From an uncultured Chloroflexia bacterium (GTDB taxonomy: Bacteria; Chloroflexota; Limnocylindria; QHBO01), in contig CAWDVA010000006.1 of the NCBI GenBank assembly GCA_963805645.1, positions 192,078 to 256,077 on the forward strand: a stretch of 64,000 bases of DNA, given 5' to 3'. A model generated the notes under the pieces. The model worked only from the letters and a program-made list of their open reading frames with translations, was not told the DNA's origin and did not search any database. Shown here one piece after another: positions 1,787-25,175 of this stretch (its first letter is position 1; each line of letters begins with the position of its first letter). A program made the position numbers and the translations under genes.

Positions 1787-1818
1787 CGCCAACCCCACAT
1801 GGCCGCTCCCGCGCCACC

Positions 1819-1884
1819 CATCGCCGGTGCGCGTGACATCCATCGCCGGTGCGCGTGACATCCATCGCTGGCCCCCGGCGCCAC
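1819..1884. repeat. 22-bp tandem direct repeat: 2 perfect copies plus 1 degenerate copy
   Basis: catcgccggtgcgcgtgacatc occurs at 1819-1840 and 1841-1862. The variant catcgctggcccccggcgccac follows. A gcgccacccatcgccg motif also recurs at about 1812, 1878 and 1945, giving a 66-67 bp period. Confidence 0.8.
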
Positions 1885-1964
1885 CCATCGCCGGCCCCCG
1901 CGTCAACCCCGCATTGCCGGGACCCCGCGTTGCCGGCCCCCGGGGCGCCACCCATCGCCGCCCC

Positions 1965-2240
1965 GGCGCCACACGTGGCCCGCGTGGGAGAACGCATAAG
2001 GGCCTGCTCCCCCGCCGCGGCACACTCGGTGCGCGTGGCACGGGCAGCAACTACCCCCACGGGCGCCGTCCCACAACGGGGGCGTGTGCCCGAGCGAATT
2101 CCGGCGCCACACGTGGCCCGCGTGGGAGAACGCATAAGGGCCTGCTCCCCCGCCGCGGCACACGCGGTGCGCGTGGCACGGGCGGCAACCACCCACACGG
2201 GCGCCGTCCCACAACGGGGGCGTGTGCCCAGCGAGATCCG
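1965..2240. repeat. about 138-bp tandem direct repeat, 2 copies at about 95% identity
   Basis: ggcgccacacgtggcccgcgtgggagaacgcataagggcctgctcccccgccgcggcacac... is present at 1965 and again at 2103. Confidence 0.85.
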
Positions 2241-2275
2241 GGCGCAGGCTCGCCACGCCCCGATACACTCCTCGC

Positions 2276-3271
2276 GTGGCACCCCGGCTCCCCACCCCGA
2301 GCGACATCCTGGCCGCGGCCGTTCGGCTGCGCGGCATCGCCCTCGACACACCCCTCGAACCGGCACCGGCGCTCGCCGCGGCGAGCGGGGCCGCGGAGGT
2401 GCGCCTGAAGCTCGAGGCGCTCCAACCCACCGGCAGCTTCAAGACCCGCGGCGCCCACAACCGGATCGCCGTCCTGGCGGAGGCTCGCCGCCGTGGCGAC
2501 GCGCCCGACCTGCCCGTCGTGGCGGCATCCTCAGGGAACCACGGGATCGCCGTGGCCCAGGCAGCCACGCGGTACGGCCTGCCTGCCACGATCCTGGTGG
2601 GCACCAGCGTCTCGCCCGCCAAGTTCGAGCGGCTCCGCGCGCTCGAGTCGGACCTCGTGACGGTCCAGATCGCAGGCCGCGACAGCGACGACGCGGAGGC
2701 GGAGGCCCGACGGCGCGACGAGATGGGCGCGGCGACCTACGTGCCGCCGTACCACGACCCCGAGGTGATGGCCGGCCAGGGCACCATCGGGCTCGAGATC
2801 CTGCAGGCCTGGCCGGAGTGCGACGCGATCCTGGTTCCCGTGGGCGGGGGCGGGCTCATCGGCGGCATCGGCACCTGGACCAAGGCGGTGCGGCCGGGCC
2901 TGCGGCTCATCGGCATCCAGCCGGCGGCCTCGCCGCCCATGTACGCGTACCTGGAGTCCGGGTCCACGAAACCCATGCCCATCGCCCCAACCCTGGCCGA
3001 TGGCGTAGCCGGCAACATCTGGCGCGGCAGCATCACCTGGCGCGTGTGCCGGCAGCTCGTTGACGAGGTGGTGCTGGTGGACGAGGACGAGATCGCGGCG
3101 GCCATGCGCTGGTCGCTGCTGGAGCAGCATGTGCTCCTGGAGGGCAGCGCGGTGCTGGGCATCGCCGCGCTGCAGGCCCGTCGCGCCACGGGGCTCGAAG
3201 GTCGGCGGGTGGCCGTGGTCTGCACCGGGCGCAACGTCGACGAGGCGACCCTCCGGCGCGTCCTGGAGTAG
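2276..3271 (+). CDS. PLP-dependent threonine/serine dehydratase-like enzyme (fold type II, catabolic type, no ACT domain)
   Basis: SFKTRGA lysine motif, SSGNHG motif and a glycine-rich GGGGLIGG loop. The GTG at 2276 is in frame. The track start at 2222 lies inside the tandem repeat. Confidence 0.8.
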   Translation: MAPRLPTPSDILAAAVRLRGIALDTPLEPAPALAAASGAAEVRLKLEALQPTGSFKTRGAHNRIAVLAEARRRGDAPDLPVVAASSGNHGIAVAQAATRYGLPATILVGTSVSPAKFERLRALESDLVTVQIAGRDSDDAEAEARRRDEMGAATYVPPYHDPEVMAGQGTIGLEILQAWPECDAILVPVGGGGLIGGIGTWTKAVRPGLRLIGIQPAASPPMYAYLESGSTKPMPIAPTLADGVAGNIWRGSITWRVCRQLVDEVVLVDEDEIAAAMRWSLLEQHVLLEGSAVLGIAALQARRATGLEGRRVAVVCTGRNVDEATLRRVLE

Positions 3272-4321
3272 ATGGTGGCCCGGACCCGCCTCACCCTCCA
3301 GGCGATCGACCTCCACTGCGGCGGCGAGCCGCTGCGCCTGATCACGGCCGGCTTCCCGCCTGTCCCGGACCTCCCCATCCTGGAGCGCCGTGCCTGGGTG
3401 CGGGAACACGCGGATCACGTGCGGCGGGTCGCCATGTACGAGCCGCGCGGCCACCGCGACATGTACGGCGCCGTGATCCTGCCGCCGCATCGCGACGACG
3501 CGGACCTGGCGATCCTGTTCATGCACAACGAGGGCTTCTCCACGATGTGCGGCCACGGGACGCTGGCGGTGGCGACCGCGCTCGTGGAGGAGGGACTCTT
3601 CCCGGCGACCGAGCCCGAGACGGTGATCCGCCTCGAGGCGCCGGCCGGGCTGGTGACGGCCCGCGTGGATGTGCGCCGGACCGATGGCGGCGCCGCCGAA
3701 GTGACCGGGGCCCGCTTCGCGAACGTGCCCGCCTACCTCGCTGCGCGCGACCTCGAGGTGCGGGCCAATGGCCTGCCCGAGGTGACGGTCGACATCGGCT
3801 TCGGGGGCGCGTACTACGGGATCGTGGAAGCAGCGGATCTTGGCCTGCGGATCGTGCCATCCAACGTGGAGGCGCTCACCGGCGCCGGCGCGGCAATCAC
3901 CGAGATCCTGCGCCGCGAGCACGTCCCGGCCCATCCGTTCGACGCGGAGATGAGCTTCGTCTACGGCACGATCATCGTCGACCGCTCCCCCGCCGGTTCC
4001 GGCGACGGACGCGCGGAGGGCGCCGACTGGCGCAACGTCACCATCTTCGCCGACGCGGAGGTGGATCGCTCACCCTGCGGATCCGGCACGTCGGCGCTGC
4101 TGGCCCAGGCCGCGGCGCGCGGCCGGATGGGGGTGGGCGACGAGATCGCGAACGCCTCCATCACCGGCGAGATCTTCACTGGCCGGATCGACGGTGAGAC
4201 GACGTTCGGTCCGCACCCGGCGGTGGACACGACCATCGGCGGTCGCGCGTACCTGACCGGATACCAGACGCTGGTGGTGGACGAGCGGGACCCGCTCGGC
4301 GGCGGCTTCCTCCTGCGCTGA
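3272..4321 (+). CDS. proline racemase / 4-hydroxyproline epimerase family protein (both catalytic Cys present)
   Basis: MCGHGT and DRSPCGSGTSA motifs. The start ATG abuts the TAG stop of the upstream gene (TAGATG). Confidence 0.8.
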   Translation: MVARTRLTLQAIDLHCGGEPLRLITAGFPPVPDLPILERRAWVREHADHVRRVAMYEPRGHRDMYGAVILPPHRDDADLAILFMHNEGFSTMCGHGTLAVATALVEEGLFPATEPETVIRLEAPAGLVTARVDVRRTDGGAAEVTGARFANVPAYLAARDLEVRANGLPEVTVDIGFGGAYYGIVEAADLGLRIVPSNVEALTGAGAAITEILRREHVPAHPFDAEMSFVYGTIIVDRSPAGSGDGRAEGADWRNVTIFADAEVDRSPCGSGTSALLAQAAARGRMGVGDEIANASITGEIFTGRIDGETTFGPHPAVDTTIGGRAYLTGYQTLVVDERDPLGGGFLLR

Positions 4322-5126: not shown

Positions 5127-5771
5127 GTGCTGTTCGTCACCTGTCAACGCCCTGTTGCTGGTGATACTCTTCCGGGCGTGACCCTGAACGAGCACCCGGA
5201 GCCCGGGGGCCGGGAGCCGGCGCCGGCAACGGCGCTCCACCGGCTGCAGGACTTCGTGAACACCAACGACATCGAGGGCGGAAACGACGCGCTTGGCACG
5301 CCGCAGCAGCTCCGCGACTGGCTCGTGGCGGCCGGCGCCCTCGAAAGAGGGGGCCGCGTCACGCCCGAAGAGCACGCGCGGACGCTCGCCGTGCGCGAGG
5401 GCCTGCGGGCGCTGGGTCGCGCGAACAACGGGGAGCCGCTGGATGCGCACCTCGTCGCGGCCATGAACGCCGCGGGAACGGTCCTGCCGCTCGTCGCGGA
5501 CGTCACCGACTCCGCAACCTGGCGCCTCGCGCCCGCGGGGCGCGGTGTCGACGGGTTCCTCGCCGGCCTGCTGGGAACCCTTGTGAACGCCATCGCCGAT
5601 GGCAGCTGGTCGCGCGTCAAGGCCTGCCGCAACGACACCTGCCGATGGCTCTTCTACGACCAGTCCCGGAACCGCTCGGGCACGTGGTGCACCATGGCCA
5701 TCTGCGGCAGCCGCATCAAGGCCCGTGCCTACCGTGCCCGACGGCGCTCCATCCCGGCCACGGGCGCATGA
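5127..5771 (+). CDS. CGNR zinc-finger (ABATE) domain protein
   Basis: The C-terminus reads CRNDTCRWLFYDQSRNRSGTWCTMAICGSRIK, which matches the CGNR motif. The start may be GTG at 5127 or GTG at 5178. Confidence 0.75.
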   Translation: MLFVTCQRPVAGDTLPGVTLNEHPEPGGREPAPATALHRLQDFVNTNDIEGGNDALGTPQQLRDWLVAAGALERGGRVTPEEHARTLAVREGLRALGRANNGEPLDAHLVAAMNAAGTVLPLVADVTDSATWRLAPAGRGVDGFLAGLLGTLVNAIADGSWSRVKACRNDTCRWLFYDQSRNRSGTWCTMAICGSRIKARAYRARRRSIPATGA

Positions 5772-6370: not shown

Positions 6371-6411
6371 GACCGAGGCCTGATCCGCTCCGAGCGGTCA
6401 CCGGGTTGTCA

Positions 6412-6463
6412 CAGTGGCCACTGGGTCGTCGCAGTGGCCACTGGGTCGTCGCAGTGGCGCCCG
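6412..6463. promoter_or_regulatory. Two perfect 12-bp palindromes CAGTGGCCACTG at 6412-6423 and 6432-6443, with a degenerate third copy at 6452-6463; candidate dimeric-TF operator
   Basis: The sequence is directly self-complementary. The 20-bp centre-to-centre spacing equals two helical turns. The sites lie 42 bp after the GNAT stop, inside the 430-bp kgd leader. Confidence 0.5.
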
Positions 6464-6634
6464 GCCCTCCACAGCGGCCTCATGACCCGGCGGTGCGGCT
6501 CGACTTGCCACCTGCGGATCACCGTAGCGTTAGGCGACTCCACGGCTCCGTCCCGTCACCGGGGGCGGCTCTCCTGAGCGTGGGCGGCGCTGCCCACCGA
6601 GCCGATGGTGCACCCCGAAGTCGTCCAACGCTGC

Positions 6635-6720
6635 TGACATGCGCGCCTGACGAGTCGGGAGGGTCCCGGCACCAATCACCGCCGCTAACGCGATTGACAT
6701 CCGCGCCTGAAGAGTCGAGA
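6635..6720. repeat. Two copies of a 26-bp motif, tgacatNcgcgcctgaMgagtcgRga, spaced 60 bp apart
   Basis: The copies are at 6635-6660 and 6695-6720. The second begins with TTGACA and is followed by the 10-bp palindrome cgctcgagcg. Confidence 0.4.
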
Positions 6721-6809
6721 CGCTCGAGCGCCGGGGCGCGCGGCGACCCAACGTGCGCCTCTCGCTCCCGCGCTGACTCGCCCGGCGCCGTCGCCTATGC
6801 TTGCGGGTG

Positions 6810-9800
6810 ATGGCATCCCGCGACACGATCGACTCGAAACCGGTCGCCGGGGACGAGCTCCCCGACGACCTGAACCTGATCAACGCCGGGTATATCGCCC
6901 AGCTCTACGAGGCGTACCGGGCGGATCCGGCGTCCGTTGACCCGGAGTGGCGCACGCGCTTCGACGCCGGGTTCGCCGGCATGGAGCCCCTGGCAGCCGC
7001 ACCGCCGACCACCGACGGGTCCGGCGGCGAAGCGTCTTCGGCAGACGCGGCGCCCCCGGCGGAGCAGGCCCTGCCACCCGGCGCCACCCCCATTCGCGGC
7101 CCCGCGGTTCGGCTGGTGACGAACATGACCGCATCGCTGGGCGTGCCCACCGCCACGAGCTTCCGCGACCTCGAGGTGAGCATCCTGGAAGCGCGCCGGC
7201 GCGAGCTCAACGCCCAGGTCGCGCCGCGCAAGGTGAGCTTCACGCACCTGATCGGCTACGCCATCGTCCGTGCCGCCGCCGAGCAGCGGACCATGACACA
7301 TGCCTTCGCGGAGACGGCCGACGGCCAGCCCCTGCGCATGGACCCCGGGACGCTCAACCTGGGCCTGGCGGTGGACGTGGAGCGGCCGGACGGCGGCCGC
7401 TTCCTGGTGGTCCCCGTCATCAAGGGCGCGGACGACATGGACTTCGCCGCCTTCCATGCCCGCTACGAGGAGCTGGTCGCCGGCGCGCGCACCAACCGCC
7501 TCTCGCCAGACGACTTCGCGGGCGGGACCATCACCCTGACCAACCCGGGGACGCTGGGGACCACGGCGTCGGTCCCACGGCTCATGGCAGGCCAGGGCAC
7601 CATCGTGGCCACCGGCGCCATCCGCTCGCTGGCCGGGTCACGGTTGATGACCATCACCAGCACCTATGACCACCGCATCATCCAGGGCGCGGAGTCCGGC
7701 CTGTTCCTGCGGCGCATCGACGACGCGCTGGCGGGGCGCGACGGCTTCTACGAGGAGGTCTTCGCCGCCATGGGCGCTGCCCTCGGTCCGGCGCCGGCGC
7801 CGGCGCCGGAGTCGCTGACCGCCGCGCCACCGGTTTCTGCCGCCCCGACGCAGCCGGCCCCGGCTCCCGGAGCTGCGGCGGACGACCTGCGCCACATGGC
7901 CGCGGCCATGGCCCTGGTGGGCGCCTATCGCCTCTACGGCCACCTGGGCGCCACGCTGGATCCGCTGGGCGGCGATCCGCCGGGCGATCCGGCCCTCGAT
8001 CCGGCCTTCCATGGCCTGACACCGGAGATCATGGACCGCATCCCCGCCGGACAGCTGGGCGTCCATGTCGGCGGCGAGACGTTGAGCGAGGTGCTGGCCG
8101 CCCTGCGCCGCACGTACACCGGCACCATCGCCTACGAGGTCGAGCATCTCGGCAACCACGCCGAGCGCGCCTGGCTGCGGCGGGTGATCGAGTCCGGCGC
8201 GCATCGAGCCCCGCTGACCGCCGACGAGCAGCGACGCCTGCTCGAGCGCCTGACCGCCGTGGAGGGGCTGGAGCGCTTCCTCCATCGGGCCTACCTGGGC
8301 CAGAAGCGGTTCAGCATCGAGGGCCTGGACGCCATGGTGCCCATGCTCGACCTGATCCTGGAGATGGGGGCCGCGCAGGGAACCCGGCGCGCGGTGATCG
8401 GCATGGCGCATCGCGGCCGCCTCAACGTCCTCGCCCACACGGTGGGGATGAGCTACGACGCGATCCTGGCCGAGTTCGAGGCCGGGCGCCCGGACGAGGC
8501 GGTCATGCCCGACACCGAGGCGGACGACGTCAAGTACCACCTGGGCGCCGACGGCGTCTTTCCCTGCACCGCGGGCGAGGTCGCCGTCTCGGTGATGCCC
8601 AACCCGTCCCACCTCGAAGCGGTGGACCCCGTGGTCGAGGGGCGCGCCCGCGCCGAGCAGACGGACCGCTCGGCCTCACCCGCGAGGGTGGACACGCGCC
8701 GCACCCTGCCGATCCTGATCCACGGCGACGCGGCCTTCGCGGCGCAGGGCGTGGTGGCCGAGTCGTTCAACCTGTCGCGGCTCCCCGGGTATGCCAACGG
8801 CGGGACCGTCCACATCATCGGCAACAACCAGATCGGCTTCACCACCGGCGCCGACGAGGCGCGCTCCACCACCTACTCGTCGGACCTGGCCAAGGGGTTC
8901 GACGTGCCCATCGTCCACGTCAACGCCGACGACCCGGAGGCGTGCCTGGCGGCCGCGCGCCTGGCCATGCTCTACCGCGCCGAGTTCGACGCGGACATGG
9001 TCATCGACCTGGTGGGCTACCGCCGCTACGGCCATAACGAGGGCGACGAGCCGGCCTACAGCCAGCCGATCATGTACGAGAAGATCGCGACGCATCCCAG
9101 CGTGCGCGATCGGTACCTCGAACGCCTGGTCGCCGATGGCATCGTCAACGCGGACCAGGCGGCGGAGGACGCCAAGGCGCTCGCGCGGGCGTTCGCCAAG
9201 CGCCAGGCAGCGGTGCGCAAGCGCGCCACGGAGCCCGCGCTCGACCGCGGGACGGACGCGCTCCCGCGCGATGGCGGTGCAGACCCGGAGACCGCCGTCC
9301 CCGCCGACGTGCTGCGCTCGCTCAACGACCAGCTGCTCAGCTGGCCGGACGGGTTCAGCATCAACACCAAGCTCGAGCGACAGCTGGAGCGGCGACGCGG
9401 CGCGTTCGATGCGGACGAGCCGCGCATCGAGTGGGGGCACGCGGAGTCGCTGGCGCTGGGCTCGCTGCTCCTGGAAGGGACGCCCATCCGCCTCTCGGGG
9501 CAGGACAGCGTGCGCGGCACGTTCTCGCAGCGCCACCAGACCCTGGTCGACACCCAGACCGGCGAGCGCTACACGCCCATCCAGCACCTCGACGGTGCAC
9601 GGGCCAGCTTCGAGCTGCACAACTCCCCCCTGAGCGAGTACGCGGCGCTGGGCTTCGAGTACGGGTACGCCGTCACCGCGCCCGAGGCGCTGGTGCTCTG
9701 GGAGGCACAGTACGGCGACTTCGCCAACGGGGCGGAGATCATCATCGACCAGTTCCTCATTGCCGGGCTGGCCAAGTGGCGCCAGACGTCACGGCTCACG

Positions 9801-10463
9801 CTGCTCCTCCCGCACGGCTACGAGGGGCAGGGGCCGGAGCACTCGTCCGCCCGGCTGGAGCGCTACCTGGCGCTTGGCGCGGAGGGCAACATTCGCGTCG
9901 TCTATCCCACCACCCCGGCCCAGTACTTCCACCTCCTGCGCCGCCAGGGGAGGCACACCGAGCTGCGCCCCCTGCTGGTCATGACGCCCAAGTCGCTCCT
10001 CCGCCTGCCGGCGGCAGCCTCGCGGCTGGGGGACCTGACCGATGGCGCCTTCCACCGGGTCCTCGACGATCCCGAGCACGCCGACGACACGGCGAGGTCC
10101 GCGGTCCGGCGCGTGATCCTGTGCACCGGCAAGCTCTACTACGACCTGATGGGCTCGGAGCACCGGGCCGCGCTGCCCGAGGTCGCCGTGGTCCGTGTCG
10201 AGCAGCTCTATCCCTTCCCCACCGAGACGCTGCGCGCCGTCCTGGCCCGGTACCCGGCGGCCGAGAAGGTGACATGGGCCCAGGAGGAGCCGCGGAACAT
10301 GGGCGCCCGCAAGTTCGTCATGCCCAAGATCCGGCACCTCGTCCCGTTCAAGATCCCGCTGGGCGACGTCAGCCGGCCGGAGCGCTCGCGCCCGGCGGAG
10401 GGGTATCCCGGCGCGCACGCGACGGAGCAGGCCCGCATCGTTCGCGAGGCGTTCGGCGCCTGA
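6810..10463 (+). CDS. kgd: multifunctional 2-oxoglutarate dehydrogenase E1 with fused N-terminal E2 succinyltransferase domain (Kgd/OdhA type)
   Basis: About 1217 aa. An E2 catalytic DHRIIQG(AES)G motif is followed by a long TPP-dependent E1 domain. The N-terminus resembles actinobacterial Kgd. TTG 6801, GTG 6807 and ATG 6810 are all in frame. Confidence 0.9.
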   Translation: MASRDTIDSKPVAGDELPDDLNLINAGYIAQLYEAYRADPASVDPEWRTRFDAGFAGMEPLAAAPPTTDGSGGEASSADAAPPAEQALPPGATPIRGPAVRLVTNMTASLGVPTATSFRDLEVSILEARRRELNAQVAPRKVSFTHLIGYAIVRAAAEQRTMTHAFAETADGQPLRMDPGTLNLGLAVDVERPDGGRFLVVPVIKGADDMDFAAFHARYEELVAGARTNRLSPDDFAGGTITLTNPGTLGTTASVPRLMAGQGTIVATGAIRSLAGSRLMTITSTYDHRIIQGAESGLFLRRIDDALAGRDGFYEEVFAAMGAALGPAPAPAPESLTAAPPVSAAPTQPAPAPGAAADDLRHMAAAMALVGAYRLYGHLGATLDPLGGDPPGDPALDPAFHGLTPEIMDRIPAGQLGVHVGGETLSEVLAALRRTYTGTIAYEVEHLGNHAERAWLRRVIESGAHRAPLTADEQRRLLERLTAVEGLERFLHRAYLGQKRFSIEGLDAMVPMLDLILEMGAAQGTRRAVIGMAHRGRLNVLAHTVGMSYDAILAEFEAGRPDEAVMPDTEADDVKYHLGADGVFPCTAGEVAVSVMPNPSHLEAVDPVVEGRARAEQTDRSASPARVDTRRTLPILIHGDAAFAAQGVVAESFNLSRLPGYANGGTVHIIGNNQIGFTTGADEARSTTYSSDLAKGFDVPIVHVNADDPEACLAAARLAMLYRAEFDADMVIDLVGYRRYGHNEGDEPAYSQPIMYEKIATHPSVRDRYLERLVADGIVNADQAAEDAKALARAFAKRQAAVRKRATEPALDRGTDALPRDGGADPETAVPADVLRSLNDQLLSWPDGFSINTKLERQLERRRGAFDADEPRIEWGHAESLALGSLLLEGTPIRLSGQDSVRGTFSQRHQTLVDTQTGERYTPIQHLDGARASFELHNSPLSEYAALGFEYGYAVTAPEALVLWEAQYGDFANGAEIIIDQFLIAGLAKWRQTSRLTLLLPHGYEGQGPEHSSARLERYLALGAEGNIRVVYPTTPAQYFHLLRRQGRHTELRPLLVMTPKSLLRLPAAASRLGDLTDGAFHRVLDDPEHADDTARSAVRRVILCTGKLYYDLMGSEHRAALPEVAVVRVEQLYPFPTETLRAVLARYPAAEKVTWAQEEPRNMGARKFVMPKIRHLVPFKIPLGDVSRPERSRPAEGYPGAHATEQARIVREAFGA

Positions 10464-25014: not shown

Positions 25015-25175
25015 GGGTTACGCCCACCGTACCGTAACGTCGGGGAAGGGGTTGATCCGCCGCCTGCGGCGACGCTGGGTTACAGCAGCCGTAACCTGGC
25101 GTCGGGGACGGCGCCGCTCCGCCGCCTCCGGCGACGCTGGGTTACAGCGGCCGTAGCATCCGCCGGCCTGCCGCC
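25015..25175. repeat. Three copies of a 62-bp tandem repeat, each with a GGTTAC-N7-GTAACC-type inverted repeat
   Basis: GGGTTAC occurs at 25015, 25077 and 25139, exactly 62 bp apart. cgacgctgggttacagcNgccgta is shared by copies 2 and 3. The array lies in the 252-bp gap upstream of the ABC-F gene. Confidence 0.6.

Follow-up and report, generated by a model that had tools for sequence, protein, structure and literature searches.

Organisation of the dehydratase/racemase locus

We analysed a 64-kb stretch of DNA (referred to in the following as the window) with a composition of 72% G+C. An intergenic spacer of 529 bp separates the stop codon (1744-1746) of a gene for a conserved 127-aa protein from the GTG (2276-2278) of a dehydratase gene, and an array of nested tandem repeats lies in this spacer. 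The features of the locus are as follows:

1363-1746, + strand: upstream gene for a 127-aa conserved protein (ORF and translation)
1753-1788, + strand: GC-rich hairpin directly 3' of the stop codon of the upstream gene, terminator-like, without a T-run
1789-1800, + strand: left ancestral spacer GCCAACCCCACA, common to the empty-site alleles L008 and L010
1801-2245, no strand: lineage-specific non-coding array of nested tandem repeats, ~445 bp, absent from the orthologous loci of other species
2246-2275, + strand: ancestral promoter-proximal spacer, common to array-less relatives
2276-3271, + strand: PLP-dependent threonine/serine-dehydratase-like gene (PALP) with GTG start, 331 aa (Pfam PF00291, 1.1e-75)
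3272-4321, + strand: proline-racemase-family gene directly 3' of the dehydratase gene (Pfam PF05544, 7e-101)

A Pfam search revealed no family for the upstream 127-aa protein. Its gene has an AAGGAG Shine-Dalgarno sequence 10 nt 5' of the ATG, and 127-aa orthologues were called in L001, L003, L006, L008 and L009. For the dehydratase, an exact 331-aa match (P0001) was present in the protein collection, and the named homologues with ~70% identity belong to Chloroflexota MAGs. An exact look-up of the racemase and dehydratase proteins of the window returned no record. The pairing of dehydratase and racemase is kept in L001, L003, L008 and L009, and the two genes presumably form one operon.

The hairpin at 1753-1788 has a folding energy of -33.5 kcal/mol (z = -4.71), and 0 of 200 shuffled sequences folded equally well. 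Its stem is kept in L001, L003, L006, L008 and L010, with a variable loop. The hairpin is ancestral and lies outside the array. A scan of positions 1600-2500 for consensus promoters and terminators revealed 0 sites, although such a scan is ill-suited to this GC content.

Repeat structure of the array

A preliminary description of the locus had reported a non-coding block of nested repeats of ~490 bp before the dehydratase/racemase pair. This block is real, and the array proper covers positions 1801-2245. Tandem Repeats Finder detected four arrays within the spacer, which are listed here together with a recurring motif and the individual copies of the longest unit:

1811-1826, 1878-1893 and 1945-1960, + strand: 17-nt motif GCGCCACCCATCGCCG(G/C), 3 copies with a 67-nt period
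1818-1868, + strand: 22-bp unit CCATCGCCGGTGCGCGTGACAT, 2.3 copies (Tandem Repeats Finder, 100% matches)
1862-1909, + strand: 23-bp unit, 2.1 copies (Tandem Repeats Finder, 84%)
1906-1937, + strand: 16-bp unit ACCCCGC(A/G)TTGCCGG(G/C), ~2 copies (Tandem Repeats Finder: 1.9 copies at 1906-1936, 93%)
1962-2245, + strand: 138-bp array, 2.1 copies (Tandem Repeats Finder, 93% matches, 1% indels)
1963-2100, + strand: 138-bp unit, copy 1, also present in L009, L029 and L014
2101-2245, + strand: 138-bp unit, copy 2 (2101-2238) plus the initial 7 nt of a third copy

The 22-bp unit had been described as present three times; the copies are perfect, but their number is 2.3. Similarly, the motif reported to recur three times does so, with a period of 67 instead of 66 nt. 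For GCGCCACCCATCGCCG, 3 exact matches were found versus 0.6 expected, and 2 of 100 shuffles reached this number. The 16-bp unit is present in every array-bearing allele. The two 138-bp copies are 97% identical in an ungapped comparison (1963-2091 versus 2101-2229), and BLASTN showed 95.07% identity over 142 nt, in agreement with the ~95% given before. Short direct repeats, CCATCGCCGG and CCGGCGCCAC, are common to the unit ends. The array also contains the complementary 8-mers GGCACACG (2158-2165) and CGTGTGCC (2221-2228).

The array is non-coding. Its GC content is flat over the three codon positions (0.77/0.79/0.75), in contrast to 0.54/0.93/0.76 in the flanking genes, and the long ORFs running across it are therefore by-products of the 72% GC. 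The array consists of head-to-tail tandem copies of units in the range of ~10-150 bp, as is characteristic of a VNTR or minisatellite.

Orthologous loci without the array

Syntenic loci were reached via homologues of the dehydratase, members of its 90% cluster and the upstream 127-aa protein. Six orthologous loci with 79-89% nt identity to the window have a spacer of merely 76-107 bp and no array. The spacers measure 76-77 bp in L008 and L010 (86.5-89% nt identity) and 80-107 bp in L001, L003/L004/L005 and L006 (79-85% nt identity). Their common plan consists of the hairpin, a short variable stretch, CGATACACTC, 5 variable bases and GTGGCACCC.

In L010 (5001-6129), the dehydratase is called with 290 aa and the racemase with just 83 aa, and unrelated genes (RbsD/FucU, a sugar-binding regulator and a RuBisCO-large-like gene) lie 3' of the racemase. 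Either the operon is decayed or rearranged in L010, or the long-read assembly contains frameshift errors.

A putative leaderless promoter downstream of the array

Alignment of the window with L001, L003, L006, L007, L008, L009 and L010 revealed that CGATACACTC (2261-2270) is invariant in 8 of 8 loci (7 distinct sequences). The order is the same in each locus, with 5 variable nt between CGATACACTC and the GTG start, and the sequence 5' of CGATACACTC is almost free to vary. TACACT (2264-2269) within CGATACACTC lies 6 nt 5' of the GTG and is a candidate -10 box of the TANNNT type; the dehydratase gene lacks a Shine-Dalgarno sequence. The comparison thereby exposes what appears to be a well-conserved promoter of the leaderless type (CGATACACTC, 5 nt, GTG).

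In M. tuberculosis, a CGN-TANNNT -10 pattern is found 7-12 bp upstream of transcription start sites, leaderless mRNAs are abundant and there is no -35 consensus (PMC3898074). The locus described here resembles these leaderless promoters in the invariant CGATACACT 6 nt before the GTG, in the absence of a Shine-Dalgarno sequence and in a -35 region that is not conserved. The likeness concerns the sequence adjoining the array and not the array itself. From the conservation we infer a promoter function for this box of the CGN-TANNNT type. The invariant -10-like box near the GTG and the lack of a Shine-Dalgarno sequence also suggest that the dehydratase/racemase mRNA is probably leaderless, with its start placed by conservation, and this would put the array upstream of the promoter and outside any 5' leader.

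The array ends ~19 nt upstream of TACACT and ~30 nt before the GTG. It had been described as running up to the GTG; this has to be corrected, because positions 2246-2275 are conserved native sequence shared with array-less relatives and the repeats stop at ~2245.

A different situation was found in L007 (86.8% identity), in which the sequence 5' of the -10 box (L007 1-85) is unrelated to both the empty site and the array. Since the sister species have an empty site and L007 carries unrelated sequence, the spacer between the terminator-like hairpin and the putative -10 box is a hot spot of change in this group, with at least 4 states among the relatives. The contig of L007 ends in this spacer, which is counted as the fourth spacer state.

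Distribution and allelic variation of the array

The array was found solely in one species-level lineage (95.6-99.3% identity) and always at the dehydratase locus. Its flanks are collinear with those of the relatives, and in the collections scanned it forms a single locus amid unique conserved sequence, as a VNTR does. Over 8 kb, L009 (MAG GCA_964627465.1) shows 99.3% identity to the window, with 99% in the array; it contains both 138-bp copies, and a 100-N scaffold gap interrupts the front part of its array. The same locus was found by an exact 18-mer in a JGI metagenome (L014, 95.6% identity), and an exact look-up of the upstream 127-aa protein revealed two others, L028 (Logan) and L029 (JGI). 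L014 and L028 may derive from the same or related samples. Short-read assemblies break at the array, as seen from the gap in L009 and from the contigs of L014, L028 and L029, which stop inside or at it.

The front part of the array occurs in three allelic forms:

L014 and L028: 22-bp unit x0, no extra 23-bp unit, baseline length
L029: 22-bp unit x2, no extra 23-bp unit, +44 nt versus L014/L028
Window: 22-bp unit x2, with the extra 23-bp unit, +67 nt versus L014/L028

In L014 and L028 the first 17-nt motif is joined straight to CTCCCGCGTCAACC. The differences between the front-part alleles fall exactly on unit boundaries, so that the alleles differ in unit number in the manner of VNTR alleles. 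They are not de Bruijn collapses, because the shared junction is just 10 nt long. The 138-bp unit is present in 2 copies in the window and L009, in at least 1.3 copies in L029 (the contig ends in copy 2) and in 1 copy in L014. The one-copy state of L014 is less secure and could be a short-read collapse, since the contig stops 3 bases past the array and the two copies have 62 identical bases in common. The suggestion of a VNTR-like minisatellite with varying copy number is supported by these data from one species-level lineage, in which the alleles differ by whole units.

Searches for further copies

A BLASTN search with the array against the 64-kb window detected the array itself alone, and a search of L001-L013 (~100 kb of related loci, including ~11 kb of the conspecific MAG) revealed no copy beyond the orthologous locus. 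The proposal to look for other copies of the unit in related genomes by BLASTN thus yielded none in the related loci.

Public collections were scanned with one exact 18-mer, GGAGAACGCATAAGGGCC, and viral contigs with two further exact words. Among 185,579 GTDB representative genomes, a set that evidently does not include the window's own genome, the 18-mer gave 3 matches, all of them chance 18-19-mers (Myxococcales, Armatimonadales and Planktothrix). The same 18-mer gave 12 matches in JGI metagenomes, 11 by chance and one at the same locus (L014). No match was found in viral contigs with the three exact words, nor in plasmids and phages with a distant BLASTN search.

A dispersed repeat family (MIRU-like, BOX, REP or ERIC) is not indicated, as no second locus was found within the 64-kb window or L001-L013. 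A CRISPR array, with identical repeats of 23-55 bp at a constant period and unique spacers, was rejected: the motif has just 17 nt and 3 copies, and the intervals are themselves tandem repeats that share motif sequence. None of the CRISPR repeat families in Rfam was detected at threshold.

Other repeats in the window

Positions 6393-6458 hold another tandem repeat, AGTGGCCACTGGGTCGTCGC (20 bp x3), parts of which are self-complementary. It sits in a 430-bp spacer before a gene (6810-10463) for an oxoglutarate dehydrogenase in which an E2 acyltransferase domain is fused to E1 (PF00198 and PF00676), an architecture of the Kgd/OdhA type. The fused E2-E1 type of 2-oxoglutarate dehydrogenase is known from Actinomycetota. 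In L001, merely 34 bp lie between the genes that flank the 6393-6458 repeat in the window. This repeat may be another VNTR, because a 100-N scaffold gap interrupts it in L009, the conspecific MAG. L030 (the P0124 contig) ends short of this repeat locus.

Also upstream of the oxoglutarate dehydrogenase gene, positions 6627-6725 contain a 39-nt direct repeat with 60-nt spacing and 79% identity, each copy containing a (C/T)TGACAT and a GCGCCTGA(C/A)GAGTCG block. An intergenic 62-bp repeat at 25015-25138 has two copies (77-87% identity), each with a GGTTAC...GTAAC(C/G) inverted motif; it resembles paired operator sites.

Origin of the array

The repeats exist, they are absent from the sister species and their polymorphism is unit-wise. 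The whole-unit differences between samples and the absence from sister species give the array the look of an ordinary bacterial VNTR. We regard it as likely that the array is a lineage-specific non-coding VNTR or minisatellite that has grown inside a short intergenic spacer.

The ancestral spacer would have been 76-107 bp long and would have consisted of the hairpin, a variable stretch, the CGATACACTC box and the GTG of the dehydratase/racemase operon. In one species-level lineage, an additional 250-445 bp separates the hairpin from the CGATACACTC box, built by layered head-to-tail duplication of units of 16, 22, 23, 67 and 138 bp. At their ends the units share CCATCGCCGG and CCGGCGCCAC, short direct repeats of the kind on which replication slippage or unequal recombination would be expected to act, and one of these processes is the most likely mechanism.

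At both of its edges the array passes into ancestral spacer sequence. On the left, 1789-1800 is common to L008, and CCCGCGCCACC at 1808-1818 resembles CCCGCGCGACC in the L003 spacer. On the right, 2241/2248-2275 is common to L001, L003, L006 and L007. At least the front part of the array probably grew in place, as the recurring 17-nt motif includes the left-hand ancestral piece. For the ~250 bp present even in the shortest allele no donor was found, and in-situ growth alone therefore remains a proposal.

The array probably has no dedicated function and is neutral or at most promoter-modulating. A modulating effect on the adjacent promoter is possible, and any effect would most likely be indirect: the array would replace the -35 and upstream region of the promoter and would shift the upstream terminator hairpin ~450 bp away.

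Alternative interpretations

Compatible with growth as a VNTR is the idea that the 138-bp unit arose long ago as a tandem duplicate of the operon's promoter and first ~12 codons and has since decayed. GCTC-CCCCGCCGCGGCACACTCGGTGCGCGTGGCAC in the 138-bp unit agrees with the native GCTCGCCACGCCCCGATACACTC-CT-CGCGTGGCAC at 30 of 37 positions, and CCCGAGCGAATTCC of the unit aligns with CCCGAGCGACATCC inside the gene, with a collinear CCCGAGCGA block. However, this score is within noise, being reached by 55 of 1000 shuffles. Depending on gap costs, it ranks 7th-84th of 5064 or 15th-47th of 2532 among the 100-nt windows of the 64 kb, and some unrelated GC-rich windows outscore the native promoter/start region in comparison with the 138-bp unit. 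We consider such a duplicate unlikely.

The array could also be a tunable regulatory module upstream of the promoter, with binding sites for a regulator or nucleoid protein, similar to a contingency locus. It adjoins the putative promoter where a -35 or UP element would lie, contains the repeated imperfect palindromes CACGTGGCCCGCGTG and CACGCGGTGCGCGTG, and its unit number differs between samples. On the other hand, with 72% GC in the genome, short GC-rich palindromes such as these are indistinguishable from chance, and the operon with the same -10 box occurs in six other lineages without these sequences. The multi-site operator array offered as one option in the preliminary description is disfavoured by the sister species (87-89% nt identity), whose operon lacks these sites; the sites of an operator array would be conserved before orthologous operons, and those of this array are not conserved in the six orthologous spacers. 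Nor is there a candidate regulator gene beside the array. The nearest one encodes a zf-CGNR/ABATE protein (5127-5771), and this gene is also present in array-less relatives. A regulatory module is in our view improbable.

In this tunable-module reading, the operon would be an amino-acid or hydroxyproline catabolic one of an uncultured soil/sediment lineage. Its stronger version, in which gain or loss of 22-, 23- and 138-bp units resets operon expression via the leaderless promoter and makes the locus a minisatellite-based contingency locus, seems quite improbable. Contingency loci are usually built from 1-8 bp repeats. In this version the units might in addition retain decayed promoter and start-codon copies that are still active.

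An insertion at a defined point that is present in one lineage and absent from its sister species, a modular make-up and the lack of a detectable local donor for the interior would fit a small mobile element (non-autonomous, MITE-like or BOX/REP-like) that was inserted between hairpin and promoter, was then partly duplicated and persists as a remnant. Yet no terminal inverted repeats were detected at 1801/2245, the best inverted pair being internal (18 nt, 72%), and no target-site duplication was seen against the empty site. Both edges of the array blend into the ancestral spacer (CCCGCGCCACC versus CCCGCGCGACC in L003), and there is no second copy in the window, in ~100 kb of related loci, in GTDB/JGI (18-mer), in viral contigs, in plasmids or in phages. 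A mobile element is very unlikely.

The array might be transcribed as a tandemly repeated structured RNA, be it an independent small RNA or a riboswitch or 5' leader belonging to the dehydratase operon. This would agree with the GC-rich hairpins that each unit can form, e.g. GGGCGCCGUCCC/GGGGCGUGUGCCC, a hairpin kept in 5 of 5 unit copies. The complementary segments that were thought able to fold in an mRNA leader do exist as the 8-mers GGCACACG/CGTGTGCC, but they probably lie outside any leader, as the array lies upstream of the -10-like box, which is 6 nt from the GTG. Moreover, the orthologous operons do without the array. Folding, as had been suggested, gave no excess over dinucleotide shuffles (z = -1.47 and -0.58 for the + strand, -1.98 and -0.52 for the - strand, i.e. 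-0.5 to -2.0; z = -0.70 for the whole array). The Rfam 15 search, also suggested, returned 0 matches over the whole window at the gathering threshold, and at E<=10 (1600-2500) the best match had E = 0.81 and 17 bits versus a cut-off of 50. Among the five unit copies there are 0 compensatory pairs and one pair-breaking substitution, an analysis that is uninformative because the copies are ~95-100% identical. With no fold excess, no Rfam match, no covarying pair and the indication of a leaderless mRNA, a structured 5' leader finds no backing, and we judge an RNA function of the array to be highly improbable. Within the reach of the searches, the repeat occurs nowhere but at this locus and is without conserved structure, the outcome that the preliminary description had said would speak against it.

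Finally, although the source is a metagenome-assembled contig and repeats are classic for misassembly, an assembly artefact is hardly conceivable and can be excluded for practical purposes because independent assemblies carry the array (L009, L029 from JGI and L028 from Logan), with both 138-bp copies where the contigs reach.

Comparison with known repeat systems

As a lineage-specific VNTR, the array matters little in itself: it extends the list of intergenic VNTRs by one, from an uncultured high-GC bacterium that is represented by metagenome-assembled genomes only. Its practical value is that the array locus, together with the candidate at 6393-6458, disrupts short-read assemblies of this species and might be used to mark strains in metagenomes. 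If unit number affected expression, it would be an unusual minisatellite-based switch; nothing found points there.

BOX, REP/BIME, ERIC and MITE families are defined by a large number of scattered copies, together with conserved hairpins or terminal inverted repeats. The array is similar to them as a composite of short modules, one of which varies in number, but showed none of those defining features in the searches run. MIRUs are a dispersed family with ~40 loci per genome; they are typically located between genes of one operon, and their short ORFs overlap the flanking stop and start codons. With them the array shares GC-rich intergenic tandem units in a high-GC genome and a copy number that varies by strain. 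In contrast to MIRUs, it is found at one locus in the sequence searched, between a terminator-like hairpin and a promoter.

The closest resemblance is to the bacterial VNTR loci on which MLVA typing relies, such as the Yersinia pestis VNTRs and the exact tandem repeat loci of Mycobacterium tuberculosis (PMC3689786). The array differs from these in nesting several unit sizes (16, 22, 23, 67 and 138 bp) instead of repeating one unit many times, and its copy numbers are low (1 to 3), with variation seen between metagenome assemblies only. Like them, it consists of intergenic head-to-tail units of tens to more than 100 bp whose counts differ between close genomes, it breaks or collapses in short-read assemblies, and no function is required to explain it.
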